A stretch of 15,665 nucleotides of DNA from a virus (taxonomy: Duplodnaviria; Heunggongvirae; Uroviricota; Caudoviricetes), in the IMG/VR virus record IMGVR_UViG_3300031998_000029, positions 1 through 15,665 of that record, one strand, 5' to 3'. This document shows positions 6,522-15,665 of the stretch, piece by piece (position 1 is the first letter of the stretch; every line of letters starts with the position of its first letter). A program made the translations under genes and the position numbers. The notes beneath the pieces were generated by a model, which did not search any database, was not told where the DNA came from, and worked only from the letters and a program-made list of their open reading frames with translations.

Positions 6522-6642
6522 GCCCCGATAGCTCAATTGGTTAGAGCACGTAAAATAAGGTTTGTTTATGAAAATCTTTGACAGCAAAAAGATAATTGCT
6601 CTTGTAAAGCCGAGGTTGCAGGTTCGAGTCCTGCTCGGGGCA
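6522..6642 (+). tRNA. tRNA-Thr(TGT) interrupted by a 47-nt insertion in the anticodon stem (intron-like element or pseudo-tRNA); no encoded CCA
   Basis: Acceptor GCCCCGA/TCGGGGC; D arm GCTC/GAGC; T arm GCAGG-TTCGAGT-CCTGC. Removing 6551-6597 restores a perfect anticodon stem CGGCT/AGCCG with loop CT-TGT-AA. Confidence 0.75.
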
Positions 6643-6649
6643 TTTTTAT

Positions 6650-6713
6650 CCGGCGGTAGCTTAACAGGTAAAGCGTGGAGCGATGGTTGCGGGTTCGAGA
6701 CCCGCCCGCCGGC
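6650..6713 (+). ncRNA. tRNA-like element lacking the anticodon arm
   Basis: Acceptor CCGGCGG/CCGCCGG; TA; D arm GCTT/AAGC; T arm GCGGG-TTCGAGA-CCCGC. Only 13 nt (6676-6688) lie between position 26 and the T stem, where a normal tRNA has about 22. Confidence 0.7.
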
Positions 6714-6973: not shown

Positions 6974-7006
6974 GTGGGGTTAAAAAACAGAAAGGGGTTA
7001 ATTAAA

Positions 7007-8575
7007 ATGGGTTTTTATGACGCGATTAACGACGAGCTTCTCGAAGGCTCAAACGTATCCGTGACTGAAAACGGAGCGATAGGCTACCGAACTACCGGCA
7101 AAAATCTGCTCGATTTAAACTTTGCGGTTGCTTCTTTGCGTTTCGCATCCGACGAGGATATTATTGCCAGATTCAAGAAAGCCTTTTTTGAGGATAAAAT
7201 GCTTGCCATGAAGTGGCTGTTCTTCGCTCGTGATATCAGGGGCGGTCTCGGAGAGCGTCGGCTTTTCCGCACAGCCATGCGGTTTATAGCAGACTACGAT
7301 CCCAGCATTGTTATAAACCTGATTCCCCTTATCGCAGAATACGGCAGGTTTGATGACCTGTGGGAATTTCTTGAATATCCGGAGATATATCCGGAGATCA
7401 TCGACTACATTCGCGCCCAGCTTCTCTCAGACATAGAAGACCGACGGGACGGCAATTCGATTTCTCTTCTTGCCAAATGGCTGCCGTCCGTAAACGCATC
7501 TTCCGCAAGAAGTAAGAAGTATTCAAGGATGATTTGCAACGGGCTCGGAACGAAAGTGTCTACGTATCGCAAGACTCTCAGCAGCCTCAGACGATATCTC
7601 AATGTCGTTGAACAGAAGATGTCTGCCGGAGAATGGAGAAATATAAATTACGAAGCCGTCCCGTCCCGTGCCAACCTTATCTATAAGGATGCATTCCTTC
7701 GCCACGACGAAAAGAGGCGCCGGAAATTTTTGTCAGCGCTTGAAAGGGGCGAAGCGAAAATCAACTCAGCCGTGCTTTATCCGCACGATATAGTCCATAA
7801 ATATATGGTTGATAATTTTTACCGTATGGATTTACGTTATCGCGACGAAGCCATAGAAGCAATGTGGAAATCGCTTCCCGATATGGTTAAAGGCGGCGGA
7901 AATACTATCGTAGTCGCTGACGGTTCCGGGTCAATGTGTTGCAAAGTGGGAGACGGAAACAGCTCACTAACCGCACTGGAAGTAGCCGACGCATTGGCGA
8001 TCTATTTTGCAGAACATTCGTCCGGTGAATTTCGGAATAAATATATCACATTCTCCGAGCACCCGCAGCTCGTTGATTTTTCAAAAGCATCGAGCTTGCA
8101 TGACAAGCTCAACATTGCATTGTCACACAACGAAGTCGCAAACACTAACATAGAGGCAGTCTTCGACCTGATTCTGAAAACCGCAGTCAGCAATCATATG
8201 CGTCAGGATGAAATTCCCGCAAACATTCTGATCATATCCGATATGGAATTCGATGGGTGCGCGTGCACTAATGACGGATACTGCTGGGGCGGCTTGCCTC
8301 AGAATTTATTCAAGACAATCGAGCAGAAATATATAGCAGCGGGGTACAAGCTCCCCAGGCTCGTATTCTGGAACGTCAATTCCCGCACCAACACAATTCC
8401 CGTACGCGAAAATGATATGGGCGTCGCGCTTGTCAGCGGTTTTTCTGTCAATATCTGCAAAATGATCATGAGCGGCAAGACCGACCCGTACGAGTGCCTT
8501 TTGGAAACCATCAACTCCGAGAGATATCAGCCTGTTGAGGATGTGTTAAAAGAAAATAAGAGGGTTTTCATATGA
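7007..8575 (+). CDS. DUF2828-family protein (TROVE/Ro60-related helical region plus C-terminal vWA domain), 522 aa
   Basis: Recognised motifs TENGA..Y.TTG..LLDL, RDIRGGLGER, YGRFDDL, AKWLPS, LYPHDIV, the vWA MIDAS-like VVADGSGSM, ISDMEFD, LVFWNV and LVSGFS. ATG 7007 follows SD AAAGGGG. Confidence 0.85.
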   Translation: MGFYDAINDELLEGSNVSVTENGAIGYRTTGKNLLDLNFAVASLRFASDEDIIARFKKAFFEDKMLAMKWLFFARDIRGGLGERRLFRTAMRFIADYDPSIVINLIPLIAEYGRFDDLWEFLEYPEIYPEIIDYIRAQLLSDIEDRRDGNSISLLAKWLPSVNASSARSKKYSRMICNGLGTKVSTYRKTLSSLRRYLNVVEQKMSAGEWRNINYEAVPSRANLIYKDAFLRHDEKRRRKFLSALERGEAKINSAVLYPHDIVHKYMVDNFYRMDLRYRDEAIEAMWKSLPDMVKGGGNTIVVADGSGSMCCKVGDGNSSLTALEVADALAIYFAEHSSGEFRNKYITFSEHPQLVDFSKASSLHDKLNIALSHNEVANTNIEAVFDLILKTAVSNHMRQDEIPANILIISDMEFDGCACTNDGYCWGGLPQNLFKTIEQKYIAAGYKLPRLVFWNVNSRTNTIPVRENDMGVALVSGFSVNICKMIMSGKTDPYECLLETINSERYQPVEDVLKENKRVFI

Positions 8576-8862
8576 ATAAACAGGAGTTGATCAACCGTGT
8601 CTCCCGCGACACGGGGCTGACAAAAAACATCGCGGAAATCGTTATGGACTCCATAACGAAAAACATCACCGAAGCTCTTTCGGACGGCGACGACGTCAGA
8701 ATAATGGGATTCGGAATTTTCGAACTCAAACGGTATTCTGCACGAATGGGCAGAGTCCCCGGAACAGGGGAGACCGTAGAGATACCGCCGAGAACCAGTC
8801 CGGTTTTTCGGGCGGGAACAAAATTAAAAAAGGCAGTTGCCGGAAAGGATGAAAGATGTTAA
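8572..8862 (+). CDS. hup: HU-family histone-like DNA-binding protein
   Basis: MNKQELI...; GFGIFE; R.GR.P.TGE.VEIP....PVFRAG..LK is the HU/IHF signature. Confidence 0.92.
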   Translation: MNKQELINRVSRDTGLTKNIAEIVMDSITKNITEALSDGDDVRIMGFGIFELKRYSARMGRVPGTGETVEIPPRTSPVFRAGTKLKKAVAGKDERC

Positions 8863-9588: not shown

Positions 9589-9990
9589 ATGGCAAAAATC
9601 ACTATTCTTCCCGAGGGTGCAGTAATCGTAACTCTCGCAACCAAGCTTGAGGATCTCAAGATGGTGGAGAAGTATCATCCGGAGGCGCTTGTCGTCAAGG
9701 GCGGAGAGGATGGTAAGGAAGAGCTTTTCAAGCTCACCACCACCGAACCGAACGGCCACATCAACCGTTACGGCGCGGCATTCACCAAGGCAACGCACGG
9801 CGAGGGTTTCGCGGTAGTCACCACCACCCTTGAGAAGCTCGGCGGCAGCGGAGACCCCGTGGATATCGTCGCGGACAAGCTCGGTTCTGCGGTGATGTAT
9901 CTGAACAAGATCGAAGAGGGTATTCCCGCCGTTCTCGCCGAGACCGCCGCAGCAAAGGCAGCCGTCGTCGGCTGCATCACCGTGGTCTGA
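9589..9990 (+). CDS. Hypothetical protein, 133 aa, directly upstream of the Ubl gene; probably highly expressed
   Basis: SD AAAGGAG precedes ATG 9589; strong codon bias. The GTG 9268 extension in the track overlaps the previous gene and non-coding hairpins. Confidence 0.85.
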   Translation: MAKITILPEGAVIVTLATKLEDLKMVEKYHPEALVVKGGEDGKEELFKLTTTEPNGHINRYGAAFTKATHGEGFAVVTTTLEKLGGSGDPVDIVADKLGSAVMYLNKIEEGIPAVLAETAAAKAAVVGCITVV

Positions 9991-10009
9991 TAACCACGGT
10001 TCCCTGCAT

Positions 10010-10042
10010 GAGCTGCCGCAGGCTTCGCGGCAGCTCTTTATT
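10010..10042 (+). terminator. Intrinsic terminator-like hairpin
   Basis: GAGCTGCCGC-AGGCTTC-GCGGCAGCTC followed by TTTATT. Confidence 0.7.
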
Positions 10043-10086
10043 ATTACATCAAACTACATAAATTAATGTGAAAAGGAGATTTTATC

Positions 10087-10311
10087 ATGATCAGAGTCAA
10101 CATCAGAAACAATATGTCCGAAAAGGTGTTCGTCGTTTCCCCCGAAACCACCGTCGCGGCCGCAATCGAGCAGTCGGGCATGACGCTCGCAAGAGAGATC
10201 TATCTCAACGGCTCCCCGGTTTCCGCCGCCGATCTCAACAAGAGCTTCGCCGAACTCGGCGTCGAGTCGGAAGCGTTCATTCGCGGAATCGCAAAGGCCG
10301 TCAACGCCTGA
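10087..10311 (+). CDS. Putative ubiquitin-like (beta-grasp, MoaD/ThiS-like) protein, 74 aa, ending ...FIRGIAKAVNA
   Basis: SD AAAGGAG. Pattern fits a beta-grasp fold (IRVNI, VFVVS, TTVAAAIEQ helix, IYLNG, L.KSFAELGV). Lies upstream of E2-like, JAB and E1 genes. Confidence 0.75.
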   Translation: MIRVNIRNNMSEKVFVVSPETTVAAAIEQSGMTLAREIYLNGSPVSAADLNKSFAELGVESEAFIRGIAKAVNA

Positions 10312-10323
10312 TCTCACGTATTT

Positions 10324-10353
10324 CCCGCCGCTGTCAATCAGCGGCGGGTTTTT
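10324..10353 (+). terminator. Intrinsic terminator after the Ubl gene
   Basis: CCCGCCGCTG-TCAAT-CAGCGGCGGG-TTTTT. Confidence 0.8.
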
Positions 10354-10356
10354 CAT

Positions 10357-10441
10357 GGGGAATTGATGGAATGGCAGACATAGGGGACTTAAAATCCCTT
10401 GGGTCAAACCCGTATCGGTTCGAGTCCGATATTCCCCACCA
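10357..10441 (+). tRNA. tRNA-Leu(TAA) with encoded CCA
   Basis: Acceptor GGGGAAT/ATTCCCC; anticodon arm GGGGA-CTTAAAA-TCCCT; long variable arm GGG-TCAAA-CCC; T arm ATCGG-TTCGAGT-CCGAT; ends in ACCA. Confidence 0.95.
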
Positions 10442-10472
10442 ACCACATTAAATAAAAGAGGGAGAGTTGATA

Positions 10473-11939
10473 ATGTTCAGAAACAGAATTGAGCTGACGC
10501 CGTTTAACGACGGCGTAGCGGAATCGCTATTCGGCGAGAAAATAATGGGCGGCAGTTTTCAGTACGACTGGTCGTTTCTCGCCACTCTGCGGGCGCTGAC
10601 GTATCCGAGGATGCCCCAGGGCGATGTTTTAACGCTGAATTTTTCGGCGTCAAGCTATAGCGGACTCGATACACAAAACTACAACGACGAGAGTCTGGCA
10701 AACGCTCTTTTGCAAAAGGGCTCAGCTCCGAGGAATATGTTGAGGGTTCACAATTTCAATAATTCCCGGCATGAGGCAAACGTCTCATGGGTAGATTATG
10801 TGGAAAAAAACTTTTCCCGTCTGCGCCCCGGCTGGGTAAGATTTGAAAAGGCGTCTCTCTGGTTCAGCCAGAAGAAATTCAGTGGGGCGGTTTTCATCAA
10901 CGCGGAGCTTAAAAGCGCCATAGTGTTCGTTGCGGATATGGATATACCGCGCATGCACTGCATTCAGAGCGCGATACCGGCGTACCTTCCGTGGTATTTT
11001 GACCCCGAAAAGGGTATGACGGAAACGGAAATACAGCTTCTCCAGTCGCTCAGGGAAAACACAGATGTAAATTATCGCAAATGTATGTCTGAGCTTGCTC
11101 AGAAATACAACTTCCGCGAAGAGATAATCCGCACCAAGCTTGCGGGGTTCGAAACGGCATACGAGAGAGCCGAAATGAATCGCGTGCAGACAAAAATCGA
11201 AGAACTTTTAGACAGGATCAGCGCGGCGAAAAGAAATATGCTCGAAGCGCTCGAAAGGAAAAAAGAATACGACATCAGAGCGCTCGGGCTTCAGGAAAGG
11301 ATCAACAACAGTCCGTCCGGAGACTCGGAAATAATGAATTATTTCCTTGTAAACCCGAAGCTGACGCTCGTAGACGTATCCGGAACGTTAATCACCTTTT
11401 ATGTCAGGGACTATCTGGAATACTACAATGAAGACGAAGCAAAGATATGTATAAACAACAGAAACAGTTGTATCTATCCGTATAGCAATAATGGTCGCCA
11501 CAGCGATATGGAGCGCCTGATGAGGGCGATATTCATCGACAAAAAACTGCGTATCCGGTTTTGTGCCGCATACCAGTTCAATATTAACGGGTACGTAAGC
11601 GCGCTTGCGGGGTTCTCGGGATACGGGTTTGACTGTGCTGAGTTTACTCCGAATCCCCACATAGACCGGTATGCTTGTATGGGGGATTACGAACGGTTTG
11701 TAAACGAATATCTCGCGCAGAACGATTATATTGGCGCGATAGAACAGACCGTAGCTTCGTGCAAAAGCCTTAATTTCGGAGATGCCTATGTTATGCAGGA
11801 GTTTATGGGGCGGATGTACAGGGGCTCCAGAGACGATGTGAATATGCGGTGTATCGAACTTCCGGACGGCAAGGTAGTAACGCCCGAAGAGGCAATCGGA
11901 TATTTAAAGCAGGAGGATAACAATGGCAAAGATAATTAA
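10473..11939 (+). CDS. Putative E2-like conjugating enzyme: unknown N-terminal domain, central coiled coil and C-terminal E2/UBC-like domain, about 488 aa
   Basis: C-terminal PNPHIDRYACMG resembles the E2 HP(N/H)(I)...CL motif, with Cys codon at 11676-11678. It is followed by helices and an LN..D segment. Operon context supports the call. ATG 10473 fits the SD better than TTG 10467. Confidence 0.6.
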   Translation: MFRNRIELTPFNDGVAESLFGEKIMGGSFQYDWSFLATLRALTYPRMPQGDVLTLNFSASSYSGLDTQNYNDESLANALLQKGSAPRNMLRVHNFNNSRHEANVSWVDYVEKNFSRLRPGWVRFEKASLWFSQKKFSGAVFINAELKSAIVFVADMDIPRMHCIQSAIPAYLPWYFDPEKGMTETEIQLLQSLRENTDVNYRKCMSELAQKYNFREEIIRTKLAGFETAYERAEMNRVQTKIEELLDRISAAKRNMLEALERKKEYDIRALGLQERINNSPSGDSEIMNYFLVNPKLTLVDVSGTLITFYVRDYLEYYNEDEAKICINNRNSCIYPYSNNGRHSDMERLMRAIFIDKKLRIRFCAAYQFNINGYVSALAGFSGYGFDCAEFTPNPHIDRYACMGDYERFVNEYLAQNDYIGAIEQTVASCKSLNFGDAYVMQEFMGRMYRGSRDDVNMRCIELPDGKVVTPEEAIGYLKQEDNNGKDN

Positions 11940-13038
11940 ACTGACGCCGAAGTATATATCGGAACTTCAGACGGACTTCCTGAACGCGATTCAGAAGTCG
12001 AAGCTCTCCGACGGAAAGATAACTTTTTCAAAGTCCTTCGGGAACATCGACGAAAAAGCCACCGTGTTCTTCACTTCGCCAGCGTGGGCTAAGATACAGG
12101 CGCTTGTCGACGGATTCAGCAAGGAAGTGGCGTGGCATGCTTTAGCTTCTCGCGGAAGAGACCCGGAAAAGAACGAATATTTCGTTTCAAACGTAATAGT
12201 TTATCCGCAGATAGTTACGGGAATCGACGTGGACACGGATCAGGAAGAGTATCAGAAGTGGCTCGATTCTTATGACGGAAATACTTTAAACAGCATACGT
12301 TTTCAGGGGCATTCGCATGTGAATATGGGCGTCAGCCCGTCCGCCAAAGACACCGGATTCTATAATGAACTGCTTGCGCAGCTCGACGACACGGGCTTCT
12401 ATATCTTCATGATATTCAACAAGCGCGGCGAGAAGATGGTAAAGATATACGATATGGCGAAGAACCGCCTGTTTGAGACGTCCGACGTCAAGATTGAAGT
12501 TCTTCTCAACCCAAGCTGCGCCGGAACCGTAAGTCTGACCGGAAAGAACGGAGAAGCCGCATCTCTGAGCGAAGAAGAGCAGACAGTCATGCTCGACGCT
12601 CTCCGCACGTTCAGAGAAAAGCAGATAACCGACGAGTTTATCAAGGAAGCGAAGGCTGTGGTGAAGGAAAAAACATATGCCGCGAATTCACAGTACCCCG
12701 CGAATTCATACGGTTATCCGTATGACCACAGCTACTGGGGCGAAACCTGGGCGGGAGCCAAGACCTATCCGGCTCAGAACACTAACCCCGCAGACAAAAC
12801 TCCCGAGCCCGTCAAGCCCGCACCGGCTTCACCCAAAACGCAGGAGACAAAACCCGCGCCTGCCGCTCAGGGAGCCGCCGCAACCGGCGGAAAGAAGAAA
12901 AAGGGAAAGAGGAAGAAGTCCGGAGGCCTGAAGTATTACGGTGCAACCGAGATAAAATACAATTCCCCCGCCGCGAACGACGATGACGACGAAGATGATC
13001 CGTACGGGCCGTACGGATATCGCGACGGACGCTGGTAA
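11923..13038 (+). CDS. JAB/MPN+ (JAMM) metalloprotease with a long low-complexity C-terminal tail, 371 aa
   Basis: Exact JAMM motif HSH-x7-S-x2-D (GHSHVNMGVSPSAKD, first His codon at 12310) and an upstream Glu in KEVAWH. SD AGGAGG. Confidence 0.88.
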   Translation: MAKIIKLTPKYISELQTDFLNAIQKSKLSDGKITFSKSFGNIDEKATVFFTSPAWAKIQALVDGFSKEVAWHALASRGRDPEKNEYFVSNVIVYPQIVTGIDVDTDQEEYQKWLDSYDGNTLNSIRFQGHSHVNMGVSPSAKDTGFYNELLAQLDDTGFYIFMIFNKRGEKMVKIYDMAKNRLFETSDVKIEVLLNPSCAGTVSLTGKNGEAASLSEEEQTVMLDALRTFREKQITDEFIKEAKAVVKEKTYAANSQYPANSYGYPYDHSYWGETWAGAKTYPAQNTNPADKTPEPVKPAPASPKTQETKPAPAAQGAAATGGKKKKGKRKKSGGLKYYGATEIKYNSPAANDDDDEDDPYGPYGYRDGRW

Positions 13039-13049
13039 AGGAGGTTTTT

Positions 13050-13631
13050 ATGACTCGGGGAGAGTTTTTTGAAAATGTTATAGACTGGAGCGATCTGAAA
13101 GATGTCTGCGAAGAGTACGGATGTGACATCTGCGATGACATATATAACGACGACGGCAGAGACGACATAATAGAAGACCGCCTGTATGACTGGGTAAGGA
13201 GCGAATCATGGAGAGATGTGAGAGACTATCTCACTTGCTACAGTACCAACTCATACGACTGGTGGATATATGACGATAATTATGACGAATGGGAAGAGGC
13301 AGGCGACGGCCTGTTCGAAGTGCGCAAAAATGACGTCGCAGAGTGGCTGAGCGAAAACGGTCATTTTGAAGACGAAGAAGTATGCGACGAAACCGAAGAC
13401 GAAGATTTCTTCGGACAGGAAGAAATACACGACGAGCCCGAAGAGGACGCCGAGCCTGATAACTTCGACTTCGGAGAAATGTTATCGTCTTCCGCAGTTT
13501 TCATACGCGAGGCCGAAGAGCAGCTTAAAAAGAAAGAAGAAGAAGACAGGCAGAGACAGGCAGAAGAAATGCGCAGCGAGTCCGAGGCCGCCGCCGCGTT
13601 CAATGATTTCGTATCGGGTTTCCAGATTTAA
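13050..13631 (+). CDS. Highly acidic hypothetical protein, 193 aa
   Basis: SD AAGGAGG. About one third Asp/Glu by hand count. N-terminal C-x4-C-x2-C. Confidence 0.8.
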   Translation: MTRGEFFENVIDWSDLKDVCEEYGCDICDDIYNDDGRDDIIEDRLYDWVRSESWRDVRDYLTCYSTNSYDWWIYDDNYDEWEEAGDGLFEVRKNDVAEWLSENGHFEDEEVCDETEDEDFFGQEEIHDEPEEDAEPDNFDFGEMLSSSAVFIREAEEQLKKKEEEDRQRQAEEMRSESEAAAAFNDFVSGFQI

Positions 13632-13649
13632 GGATTGAAAGGAGTACAA

Positions 13650-14324
13650 ATGAATCTTAGTAAGTCATATGATTTTTTCCAGCCGGAAAAGGATAAGGCG
13701 CGTATACACATCATAGGCTGCGGCTCCGTCGGCAGCACCCTTGCGGAAAATCTGGCAAGGTGCGGCGTCACGAGGATGACGCTGTGGGACTTCGACAACG
13801 TCGAATCGAAGAACATAGTCAACCAGATGTTCCGTCAGCAGGATATCGGCAAGCCTAAGGTAGAGGCTCTGCGCGATATACTGCTTGAGATCAATCCGGA
13901 AATAGAGGAGGATCTCGAACTCAAGCCCGAGGGATGGCAGGGAAATATGCTGTCCGGATACATCTTTCTTGCCGTCGACAATATCGATCTTCGACGCAAA
14001 ATAGTAGAGCAGCATATGAATAACGCATATGTAAAGGCGGTTTTTGACTTCCGAACTCTGCTCGAAAGCGCACAGCACTTCGCGGCTGACTGGAGCAGTC
14101 CGGCTTCAAAAAAGAATCTGCTGAGCACGATGCAGTTTTCGCAGGAAGAGGGTCTTGAAGAAACTCCCGTTTCGGCGTGCGGCATAACGCTCGGAGTTGC
14201 CACGACCGTCCGCCTTATATGTGCACTCGGCGTGAACAACTATATAAACTTCGTCAAGGGCAACGGCATCTGGAAGTTCTGTCAGATAGACGGCTTCACC
14301 GGCACGCTCGACTGTTTCAAGTAA
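13650..14324 (+). CDS. ThiF/MoeB/E1-family adenylating enzyme, 224 aa
   Basis: IIGCGSVG nucleotide-binding loop, WDFD, KNIVNQ, GKPKV and AVDN..LR motifs. Candidate catalytic Cys in PVSACG (codon 14178-14180). No CxxC Zn pairs. SD GAAAGGAG precedes ATG 13650. Confidence 0.92.
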   Translation: MNLSKSYDFFQPEKDKARIHIIGCGSVGSTLAENLARCGVTRMTLWDFDNVESKNIVNQMFRQQDIGKPKVEALRDILLEINPEIEEDLELKPEGWQGNMLSGYIFLAVDNIDLRRKIVEQHMNNAYVKAVFDFRTLLESAQHFAADWSSPASKKNLLSTMQFSQEEGLEETPVSACGITLGVATTVRLICALGVNNYINFVKGNGIWKFCQIDGFTGTLDCFK

Positions 14325-14379: not shown

Positions 14380-14412
14380 TCACGCAGAAAGAAATATCTG
14401 CGTGAAATTTTT
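14380..14412 (+). terminator. Terminator-like hairpin after E1
   Basis: TCACGCAGA-AAGAAATA-TCTGCGTGA followed by AATTTTT. Confidence 0.6.
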
Positions 14413-14980: not shown

Positions 14981-15665
14981 ATGATCTACATTACGACTCC
15001 GCAGTCTCCGGTATATCCGCAGATAACACTGGAAGAACTGCTGTTTATGCCGGATTACAATCCAAAGCCGATATTGTGGAATTTTGCAAACACGCGAACA
15101 AGAGAGGCGGAACGCGCCCCGGCAGAGCTGATGCGCAAGATCGACGTAAACGCGCTGATATCACGGCTTTCCAAGTTCAATGCGGATACGGAATACCTGC
15201 GCAGCAAACCGCGAAAAGAACTTTACAGAGAGTTCTTTATTCCAAAGAAGGGAAGCGAGGGAGGCAGGATAAAGTGGCGCCGTATAGACGCCCCAAACCC
15301 CGATCTCATGAATGCTTTGTACACGCTCAAGTCGATATTTGAAGACAATTTCCGTGTTCTCTATCACACTTCGGCGTTTGCATATATAAAGAAGCGCAGC
15401 ACAATAGACGCAATAAAAAGACATCAGGAAAACGAGAGCAGATGGTTTGGGAAGTACGACCTGTCCGATTTCTTCGGAAGCACGACGCTCGACTTCGTTA
15501 TGGACATGTTCTCGATGGTGTTCCCGATATCAGAAGTCGCAAGGCGTCCGGACGGAAGAGCGGAGCTGAGAAAGGCGCTTGAGCTTGCGTTTCTTGACGG
15601 CGGGCTCCCGCAGGGAACCCCCATATCTCCGCTTATAACGAACGTCATGATGATCCCCATAGACT
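14981..15665 (+). CDS. Retron-type reverse transcriptase, 3'-truncated by the window end (228 codons visible; missing from the ORF track)
   Basis: SD AAGAAAGGA. Open frame MIYITTPQSP... carries RT motifs YREFFIPKKG..WRRIDAP, HTSAFAYIKKRS, KYDLSDFFGS and GLPQGTPISP. The YxDD motif would lie beyond the window. Confidence 0.9.
   Translation, partial: MIYITTPQSPVYPQITLEELLFMPDYNPKPILWNFANTRTREAERAPAELMRKIDVNALISRLSKFNADTEYLRSKPRKELYREFFIPKKGSEGGRIKWRRIDAPNPDLMNALYTLKSIFEDNFRVLYHTSAFAYIKKRSTIDAIKRHQENESRWFGKYDLSDFFGSTTLDFVMDMFSMVFPISEVARRPDGRAELRKALELAFLDGGLPQGTPISPLITNVMMIPID

Follow-up and report, generated by a model that had tools for sequence, protein, structure and literature searches.

The window analysed here is the first 15.7 kb (15,665 nucleotides) of the IMG/VR virus record IMGVR_UViG_3300031998_000029, which is 114,910 bp long and has a CheckV completeness of 97%. 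Between positions 9589 and 14324 it holds a candidate ubiquitin-like conjugation cassette encoding a small ubiquitin-like protein (Ubl), an E2-like protein (p490), a JAB/JAMM metallopeptidase (JAB) and a ThiF-type E1, followed by a retron-type reverse transcriptase (RT). The four cassette genes lie on the plus strand, which holds nearly all long open reading frames (ORFs) of the window, and they are co-oriented exactly where the first-pass annotation, made from the letters alone, had placed them. Its inventory of the cassette was right in the four components that it named, while a tRNA-Leu(UAA) gene, the non-glycine end of the Ubl and the coupling to an RT had been overlooked. As far as computation reaches, each refuting condition that it had set spoke for its interpretation.

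The block opens with the gene for p133 (9589-9990), a conserved protein of 133 amino acids (aa) whose family stands upstream of the Ubl gene in relatives. It continues with the genes for the 74-aa Ubl (10087-10311), identified from a fold model and a position-conserved family of 75-aa ORFs; p490 (10473-11939), 488 aa, assigned from its family, an AlphaFold2 (AF2) model, fold matches and invariant residues; the 371-aa JAB (11923-13038), recognised by invariant JAMM residues and a profile match to Rpn11; a hyperacidic 193-aa protein, seen as an ORF (13050-13631); and the minimal E1, a 229-aa ORF (13635-14324) matching Pfam ThiF and entries of the Protein Data Bank (PDB). All of these are on the plus strand. 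The start of p490 is the ATG at 10473 in an ORF that opens with a TTG at 10467, and its residues are numbered below in the 490-aa numbering from which the name p490 derives. Judged from the family consensus, the E1 likely starts at the ATG at 13650, which gives 224 aa. As the p490 and JAB genes overlap by 17 nucleotides, and gaps of 11 and 3 nucleotides separate the JAB gene from the acidic gene and the acidic gene from the E1 ORF, these four genes look like one operon.

Terminator-like GC hairpins with a T-run follow p133 (10010-10036, plus strand; 10-bp stem, 8 GC pairs) and the Ubl gene (10324-10348, plus strand; 10-bp stem, 9 GC pairs), and hairpin scoring placed a further one, terminator-like on both strands, after the E1 gene (14380-14405). 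The tRNA-Leu(UAA) gene (10357-10441, plus strand; ARAGORN, and Rfam tRNA at 54.6 bits) sits between the Ubl and E2-like genes, immediately behind the hairpin that follows the Ubl gene. The RT (14981-15665, plus strand; Pfam RVT_1) is a 384-aa ORF that continues to position 16135 in the phage genome.

This set of genes is not a chance grouping, as it recurs in related viral loci: p490, JAB and E1 occur together in all 71 loci sampled by p490. In 68 of the 71 the Ubl gene is preceded by p133, whose alignment A6 has a mean column identity of 57%. In 42 of 71 loci tRNA-Leu(UAA) is directly upstream of the p490 homologue, and ten more have tRNA-Met, Tyr or Lys at the same spot (any tRNA, 52/71). 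The acidic protein was detected by tblastn in 21 of 71 loci and is thus a variable accessory gene. An apparent JAB-E1 fusion in loci L033 and L035 was rejected, since the tblastn match ran through a stop codon that translation confirmed.

Folds, active-site residues and predicted docking

The E1 matches Pfam ThiF with an E value of 8.6e-24 (84 bits against a cut-off of 28.1), and its PDB matches are the adenylation domains of MoeB (the best, 3.9e-11), UBA5, UBA1, MccB, PaaA and Cap2. It shows the hallmarks of the E1 superfamily, namely a Rossmann-type adenylation domain with GxGxxG, a conserved Arg/Lys and a Mg-binding Asp, and the G28-C-G-S-V-G33 loop, D52, D54, K75, D115, R140 and C182 are invariant in 36 relatives. 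Its Rossmann part matches the E1-E2 models of PADLOC at 1e-17. C182, whose codon is at 14178, is the cysteine that had been singled out as the candidate catalytic residue of the E1, and the other codon named at that point, 11676, was also placed correctly, falling on a conserved cysteine of p490. The protein consists of one ThiF domain of 224-229 aa with zero CxxC pairs and therefore has no Zn site, which agrees with its earlier description as a minimal E1.

The Ubl-E1 complex, which the first-pass annotation had put forward for modelling, was predicted with an interface score (ipSAE) of 0.70, compared with 0.02 for the best of three controls; 58 of 80 solved complexes attained 0.70, as did 2 of 110 mismatched pairs. 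Three runs share at least 98% of their contacts, and the partners have a predicted local distance difference test score (pLDDT) of at least 90. In the model the Ubl tail docks in the E1 active site, where Ubl residues 68-74 contact E1 residues 28 and 30-33 (the P-loop), 112-117 (round D115), 139-142 (round R140) and 170-177/185, a loop that flanks C182. The predicted docking is that of the MoaD-MoeB and ubiquitin-E1 adenylation geometry. Because E1-Ubl complexes have already been solved, this result shows likeness to known complexes and not binding.

The 74-aa protein had been proposed as a beta-grasp Ubl, and its modelled fold bears this out. The ESM Atlas model of the window's copy (predicted template-modelling score, pTM, 0.71) matches the TUG-UBL, UBX, DDI1-UBL, ubiquilin and ubiquitin domains with a template-modelling (TM) score of 0.62-0.69 over 66-71 residues, which supports a beta-grasp assignment. 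Nearly all related loci have a 75-aa ORF where the Ubl gene lies, and these ORFs align well; an alignment-based search for the family led to 1992 clusters. As the window's Ubl is a divergent member, a homologue search with this one sequence retrieved nothing beyond the query; the Ubl profile gave nothing significant against PDB sequences. At 26-41% identity to relatives that are much closer to one another, the window's Ubl is an outlier of its family; by contrast, the window's E1 is 55-78% identical to its own relatives.

The Ubl family has a distinctive C-terminus. The consensus K-A-D-N-A was present in all 120 relatives inspected, being terminal in 90 and extended by 1 to 10 residues in 30 (A, AA, AAA, G, S, HQ or longer tails), while the window's copy ends in K-A-V-N-A, Val replacing the conserved Asp. 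Among 30 aligned Ubls from the loci, 29 have the (K)ADNA/AVNA end without a terminal Gly, the exception (L004) ending in ...KAD, and a Gly occurs in 1 of the 120 relatives, solely as an extension residue after D-N-A. An invariant motif followed by variable extensions suggests a precursor that is trimmed. In E. aridi BilA, a single Ala past the reactive Gly must be removed and the protein is unreactive while it remains (PMC10557695), and by analogy the reactive residue here could be Ala74, or Asn73 once the Ala is removed. One identical 75-aa Ubl was seen on more than 350 contigs (loci L338-L341, around protein P0213). One source names a record with this Ubl Ruminococcus sp. AF12-5, possibly a culturable lysogen, and a YonV_C-domain gene near the L338-L341 loci points to kinship with SPbeta-like phages.

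The family of p490 numbers at least 627 proteins, all unnamed or viral. The AF2 model of the whole protein (pLDDT 91) contains an N-terminal alpha/beta domain (residues ~1-225), a 54-residue helix (228-281) and a C-terminal domain (C-domain, 284-490), and the C-domain folded alone reached a pLDDT of 92.9 and a pTM of 0.88. Its order is a helix, four strands with an insert after strand 2, a loop, N-P-H, a Cys and three helices. In the predicted model, this order and the active-site-type loop are those of the ubiquitin-conjugating (UBC)/E2 superfold. The P-N-P-H-I...C motif that had led to the E2-like designation is present, its Cys (codon 11676) being C404. N396, H398 and C404 come after strand 4 and before a helix, the order of HPN...Cys in E2s, and together with G406 they are invariant in 60 relatives and also in 65 relatives that include 27-31% identical ones.

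In an exhaustive structural comparison of the C-domain with 48,161 PDB representatives (VIA-align), about 45 of the 50 top rows were UBC, UEV or RWD proteins, with Z scores of 4.2-7.3. The best matches were RWD domains of SEA-complex proteins, Knl1, listerin, RNF25 and GCN2 (Z 5.5-7.2). The C-domain also matched Cap2 (7to3_A, Z 5.9), FANCL and Ubc9 (Z 5.6), BilB (8tyz_C, Z 5.5) and many E2s (Z 4.2-5.2), the latter aligned over up to 125 residues. Foldseek candidates from the PDB agreed on a UBC/RWD/UEV fold when re-examined, and a "UBC core domain" AFDB cluster matched with a Foldseek probability of 0.82-0.93. The whole 490-aa model had no Foldseek match in the PDB at E 0.001 or better, and in VIA-align its long helix swamped the results, which folding the C-domain alone solved. 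Comparing the 65 C-domain members with Pfam at E up to 10 gave scattered noise only, and the C-domain profile found nothing significant among PDB sequences. The UBC/RWD-like fold class of the modelled C-domain is thus well supported; given modest Z scores and best matches that are non-catalytic RWD domains, E2-type catalysis by p490 is a further step that we infer. The N-terminal domain had weak matches (Z 4-5) to Pol-beta nucleotidyltransferases (Z 3.7-4.8 for nucleotidyltransferases), MogA and glyoxalase folds, and no nucleotidyltransferase-type catalytic motif was found among its invariant residues.

The JAB was reported earlier as an intact JAMM protease, and its catalytic residues E68, H130-S-H132, S140 and D143 are indeed invariant in 35 relatives. 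Library profiles nearly miss it (PADLOC JAB model, E 0.0024). The family profile has a sole PDB match, Rpn11 (E 0.005), in which the glutamate and the HSH...S..D motif are aligned. A peptidase domain (residues ~1-200) is followed by a low-complexity, disordered tail of ~170 residues (window positions 12500-13038), consisting of a Lys/Arg-rich patch and an acidic-aromatic end (e.g. DDPYGPYGY). It is the composition of the tail, not its sequence, that is kept in nearly all relatives, and because this composition recurs the tail may be a docking element.

Neither of the two remaining proteins could be placed. For p133 no family, PDB or confident fold match was obtained, its Atlas model being of low quality (pTM 0.52) and matching START/SRPBCC-like structures with TM scores under 0.5; it is possibly a partner, adaptor or substrate of the pathway. 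The acidic protein, which could be a DNA mimic or a regulator, had no match in Pfam, NCBIfam, PHROGs or PADLOC.

Phage family and linkage to the reverse transcriptase

The source record is a genuine tailed phage. Elsewhere it encodes a 2416-aa tape measure protein, portal, tail fibre, minor tail protein, DNA polymerase, exonuclease and NrdD, and the cassette is distant from the structural genes. Pfam Phage_capsid and Phage_portal had no match in the genome, and the portal, tape measure and tail genes were recognised via PHROGs instead. The phage context that had been assumed for the cassette therefore stands, as opposed to a chromosomal island, with the addition that the family is temperate. 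Relatives measure 95-139 kb, some with direct terminal repeats, and 4 of 25 records are classed as provirus. Other relatives lie within contigs of metagenome-assembled genomes of gut Clostridia (Oscillospiraceae, Acutalibacteraceae, Ruminococcus), including one of 359 kb, and in a 499-kb bacterial contig. Provirus-classed records and relatives inside large bacterial contigs indicate that these phages are temperate, and prophages of Clostridia carry the module too. No entry of the phage and plasmid collections searched by megablast matched the window, and tblastn of p490 against deposited phages gave a single, unannotated record at 27% identity.

Within this family the block behaves as a core trait and not as a patchy island, as an E1 was found in 14 of the 15 contigs of at least 90 kb that were sampled by portal, the exception being an 80%-complete record. 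This sampling used a portal alignment, since a single-sequence portal search gave one relative only. A portal at 60-73% identity is common to 24 of the 25 cassette phages. The exception, G019, is complete with terminal repeats and has no such portal that the search could find, yet it carries both cassette and RT, at 27% (p490) and 37% (RT) identity.

The best profiles for the RT are the retron St85 RT (E 7e-19; 68 bits against a cut-off of 235, with a truncated RT as query) and the retron RT types of PADLOC. When loci were sampled starting from the RT, p490, JAB and E1 were found upstream of it in 71/71 and 65/65 loci (136/136), counting loci with enough upstream sequence. The reverse TRANSCRIPTASE link, sampled from p490, held in 70 of 71 loci. 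One widespread sub-lineage has an RNase H1 with an N-terminal hybrid-binding domain (Cauli_VI + RNase_H) inserted between the Ubl and E2-like genes (L020:5115-5765, L029:5115-5759, L036:5045-5761 and L338:8330-8971); no RNase H was found in the window's own phage. RNase H is the enzyme required for the maturation of retron multicopy single-stranded DNA (msDNA), and the insertion is suggestive given the neighbouring retron-type RT. Overall, the evidence for a functional tie between cassette and RT is moderate and falls short of proof.

Comparison with known systems

A full-text literature search turned up papers on Bil, Bub and CBASS and a 2006 survey (PMC1779556), and nothing that described an E1/E2/JAB/Ubl set in a phage or the pairing of a Ubl with a retron. 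In gene content and inferred chemistry the cassette is most like Bil, which also has a Ubl, a Cys-bearing E2 (E2-like in the cassette), a Ubl-processing JAB with an intact JAB/JAMM metal site, and an E1 as separate genes without an E3 (PMC10557695, 10.1101/2023.09.04.556158), and whose BilB is among the fold matches of the p490 C-domain (8tyz_C, Z 5.5). It departs from Bil in E1 architecture and in the Ubl terminus. The BilD E1 is a tandem of inactive and active adenylation domains (IAD-AAD) with a mobile CYS domain and a Zn site, unlike the single Zn-less domain found here, and trimmed BilA ends in Gly where the cassette Ubl ends in Asn-Ala. BilB, moreover, is a stand-alone E2 with a CEHH motif, whereas the E2-like domain here is the C-terminal third of p490, behind 283 residues, with N-P-H...C. 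Bil also defends bacteria, while the cassette belongs to the core of a phage family and has a tie to an RT.

Type II CBASS likewise has a single-domain ThiF-type E1, a UBC-like E2 and a JAB (Cap2, 7to3_A, Z 5.9), but Cap2 is an E2-E1 fusion and the CD-NTase C-terminus serves as the "Ubl", in contrast to the separate genes and free beta-grasp Ubl seen here; no CD-NTase or effector profile of Pfam, NCBIfam or PADLOC matched the cassette. Bub (6E/DUF6527) resembles the cassette in its diverged Ubl/E1/E2/JAB set with a minimal E1, but its E1 and E2 lack a catalytic Cys (forming Tyr/Ser oxyesters) and it has the serine protease BubE (PMC11601596), whereas C182 and C404 are invariant here. None of the cassette proteins matched Pfam DUF6527 within an E limit of 0.1.

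The PRTRC system of plasmids and integrative and conjugative elements (NCBIfam TIGR03734-03742) combines a mobile-element ThiF, a small Ubl-like protein and several unknown partners. Of its models the ThiF alone matches, weakly (26.7 bits against a cut-off of 144.75), and the A, C, D, E, F and ParB models found nothing among the cassette proteins. The ThiS/ThiF, MoaD/MoeB and archaeal SAMP/UbaA/JAMM systems share with the cassette a MoeB-size E1 and, as predicted here, a small beta-grasp partner that enters the ATP site tail first; SAMP and Ttu systems have a JAMM partner too. These systems differ in their Gly-Gly-ended Ubls and in needing no E2, whereas the cassette has an E2-like protein. 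No sulfur-transfer or cofactor genes were found among the window ORFs scanned, in line with the first-pass annotation, which had seen none nearby. The only earlier-described phage pairing of a beta-grasp Ubl and a JAB, tail proteins I and K of lambda and T1, belongs to the tail module, where neither an E1 nor an E2 accompanies it, and its Ubl ends in Gly (PMC1779556). As the cassette lacks defining features of Bil, Bub, CBASS, PRTRC and the sulfur carriers, we class it as a phage-carried form of prokaryotic ubiquitin-like conjugation.

Proposed pathway and its alternatives

With moderate confidence, we regard the cassette as a ubiquitin-like conjugation pathway that the phage encodes with proteins of diverged, unnamed families, with an RT-tied function in the phage cycle or lysogeny. 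A function of this kind, and not that of a sporadic defence island, is favoured because the block is core to one family of temperate phages of gut Clostridia of ~95-139 kb and always joined to an RT. Roles suggested in the first-pass annotation were modification of phage or host proteins, or interference with conjugation-based host defences. Computation supports the folds, the catalytic-type residues that never vary, the way in which the E1 and the Ubl are predicted to dock, and the operon-like packing; adenylation, both thioesters, trimming and target conjugation are inferred. The 74-aa beta-grasp Ubl would be made with a short C-terminal extension in many relatives, which the JAMM peptidase may cut back to ...K-A-D-N-A, or perhaps by one residue more, to Asn; the same peptidase probably also strips the Ubl from conjugates. 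The minimal ThiF-type E1 would then take the Ubl tail into its ATP site and adenylate the terminal carboxylate, after which the Ubl could pass to Cys182 of the E1, in the loop covering the tail, and on to Cys404 in the UBC-like domain of p490. Since no E3 is present, target choice may fall to the N-terminal domain and coiled coil of p490, possibly with p133.

Ubiquitin-like conjugation in bacteria has so far been a host weapon against phages (Bil, Bub, CBASS), and here a pathway that looks complete is a core trait of an abundant gut-phage family. If active, it would mean that bacterial viruses themselves run protein tagging, that E1/E2 chemistry extends to a tag without a C-terminal glycine, and that ubiquitin-like tagging is linked for the first time to an RT. 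The system is tractable, consisting of four small soluble proteins with clear point mutants.

Several observations weigh against this proposal. The E1 is minimal, with neither a ubiquitin-fold domain nor a CYS domain for hand-over to an E2, and a Gly or Gly-Gly at the C-terminus, normally required of E1-dependent Ubls, is missing from this one, which recalls the unreactive Ala-extended BilA (PMC10557695). The Z scores of the E2-like domain are modest (at most 7.3) and its top matches are non-catalytic RWD domains, not E2s. The putative location of C404 at the E2 catalytic position derives from secondary-structure order in a model, and from the sequence C366, H398 and C404 could alternatively form a metal site with the near-invariant C432 and C462. 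Profile searches with Pfam, NCBIfam, PHROGs, PADLOC and PDB sequences tied none of the E2-like domain, the Ubl and p133 to a known family. As for the RT, its linkage falls almost wholly inside one phage family in which gene order is conserved anyway, and a terminator-like hairpin separates it from the E1 gene.

These last points bear on whether the genes are neighbours through descent alone, the cassette being functionally unconnected to the RT, p133 or the tRNA. We find this possible though doubtful. With portals 60-73% identical in all sampled phages but one, a conserved order is expected, and the terminator-like hairpins set p133, the Ubl gene and the RT apart from the enzyme genes. Against descent alone, the linkage persists at 27% (p490) and 37% (RT) identity and in G019, where no such portal was found; RNase H1 was inserted inside the block in one sub-lineage; and the 136 loci sampled from the RT contain no exception. 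At the opposite end, the Ubl cassette and the retron-type RT may form one machine, in which conjugation through an unprecedented Asn-Ala or Asn end of the Ubl, instead of glycine, controls, or is controlled by, reverse-transcribed DNA, an idea that we offer only tentatively. The tagged protein could then be the RT, an msDNA-bound protein or a host sensor, with the N-terminal domain of p490 or p133 acting as a nucleic-acid-linked specificity factor.

The same enzymology could instead serve prophage-borne immunity, by Bil-like tagging of the proteins of superinfecting phages beside a retron defence. All three of the known systems Bil, Bub and type II CBASS act against phages (PMC11601596, PMC10557695, 10.1101/2023.09.04.556158), the phages carrying the cassette are temperate (provirus in 4 of 25 records, relatives in the 359-kb and 499-kb bacterial contigs), and retron RTs, the kind to which the adjoining RT belongs, normally serve defence. 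We nevertheless consider an immune role unlikely, as the block is core (14 of 15 portal-sampled contigs of at least 90 kb have the E1), unlike the usual patchy defence islands, and is surrounded by phage genes of the early or accessory type that share its strand. PADLOC, furthermore, recognises it solely via generic E1 and RT profiles, and no known retron effector was seen beside the RT within the window.

It is quite improbable that there is no conjugation cascade at all, i.e. that the E1 modifies the Ubl C-terminus otherwise, yielding a thiocarboxylate sulfur carrier or performing MccB/PaaA-like chemistry on Asn, with p490 as a non-catalytic RWD-like scaffold. The RWD matches of the p490 C-domain would fit a scaffold, and the MoeB/ThiF size of the E1, the presence of MccB and PaaA among its PDB matches and the Asn-Ala end of the Ubl would fit such chemistry; a sulfur carrier could also serve tRNA thiolation in a tRNA-rich phage with a tRNA gene inside the cassette. 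Sulfur carriers, however, end in Gly-Gly and have sulfurtransferases, of which there were none among the window ORFs scanned. With 224-229 aa, the E1 is far below the MccB (348-358 aa) and PaaA (381 aa) chains, and its match to them is confined to Rossmann residues ~15-91. MccB and PaaA have an additional N-terminal peptide-clamp domain, which an E1 this short could not hold. The invariance of N-P-H...C-x-G down to 27% identity argues for catalysis by p490, and a folded 74-aa beta-grasp protein together with a JAMM peptidase is a signature of Ubl systems, so that we retain a conjugation pathway as the preferred interpretation.

Some further features of the window lie outside the cassette. Just upstream of it, 6974-8862 holds the genes for a DUF2828/DUF7788 vWA protein (PHROG "RNA-binding protein", Ro/TROVE-like; E 5e-133) and an HU/IHF-family protein. 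Two tRNA matches (6522-6642 and 6650-6713) precede these two genes. In the small-gene region of the window, Rfam places a RAGATH-16 RNA at 1153-1225 with 68.8 bits, above the gathering score.

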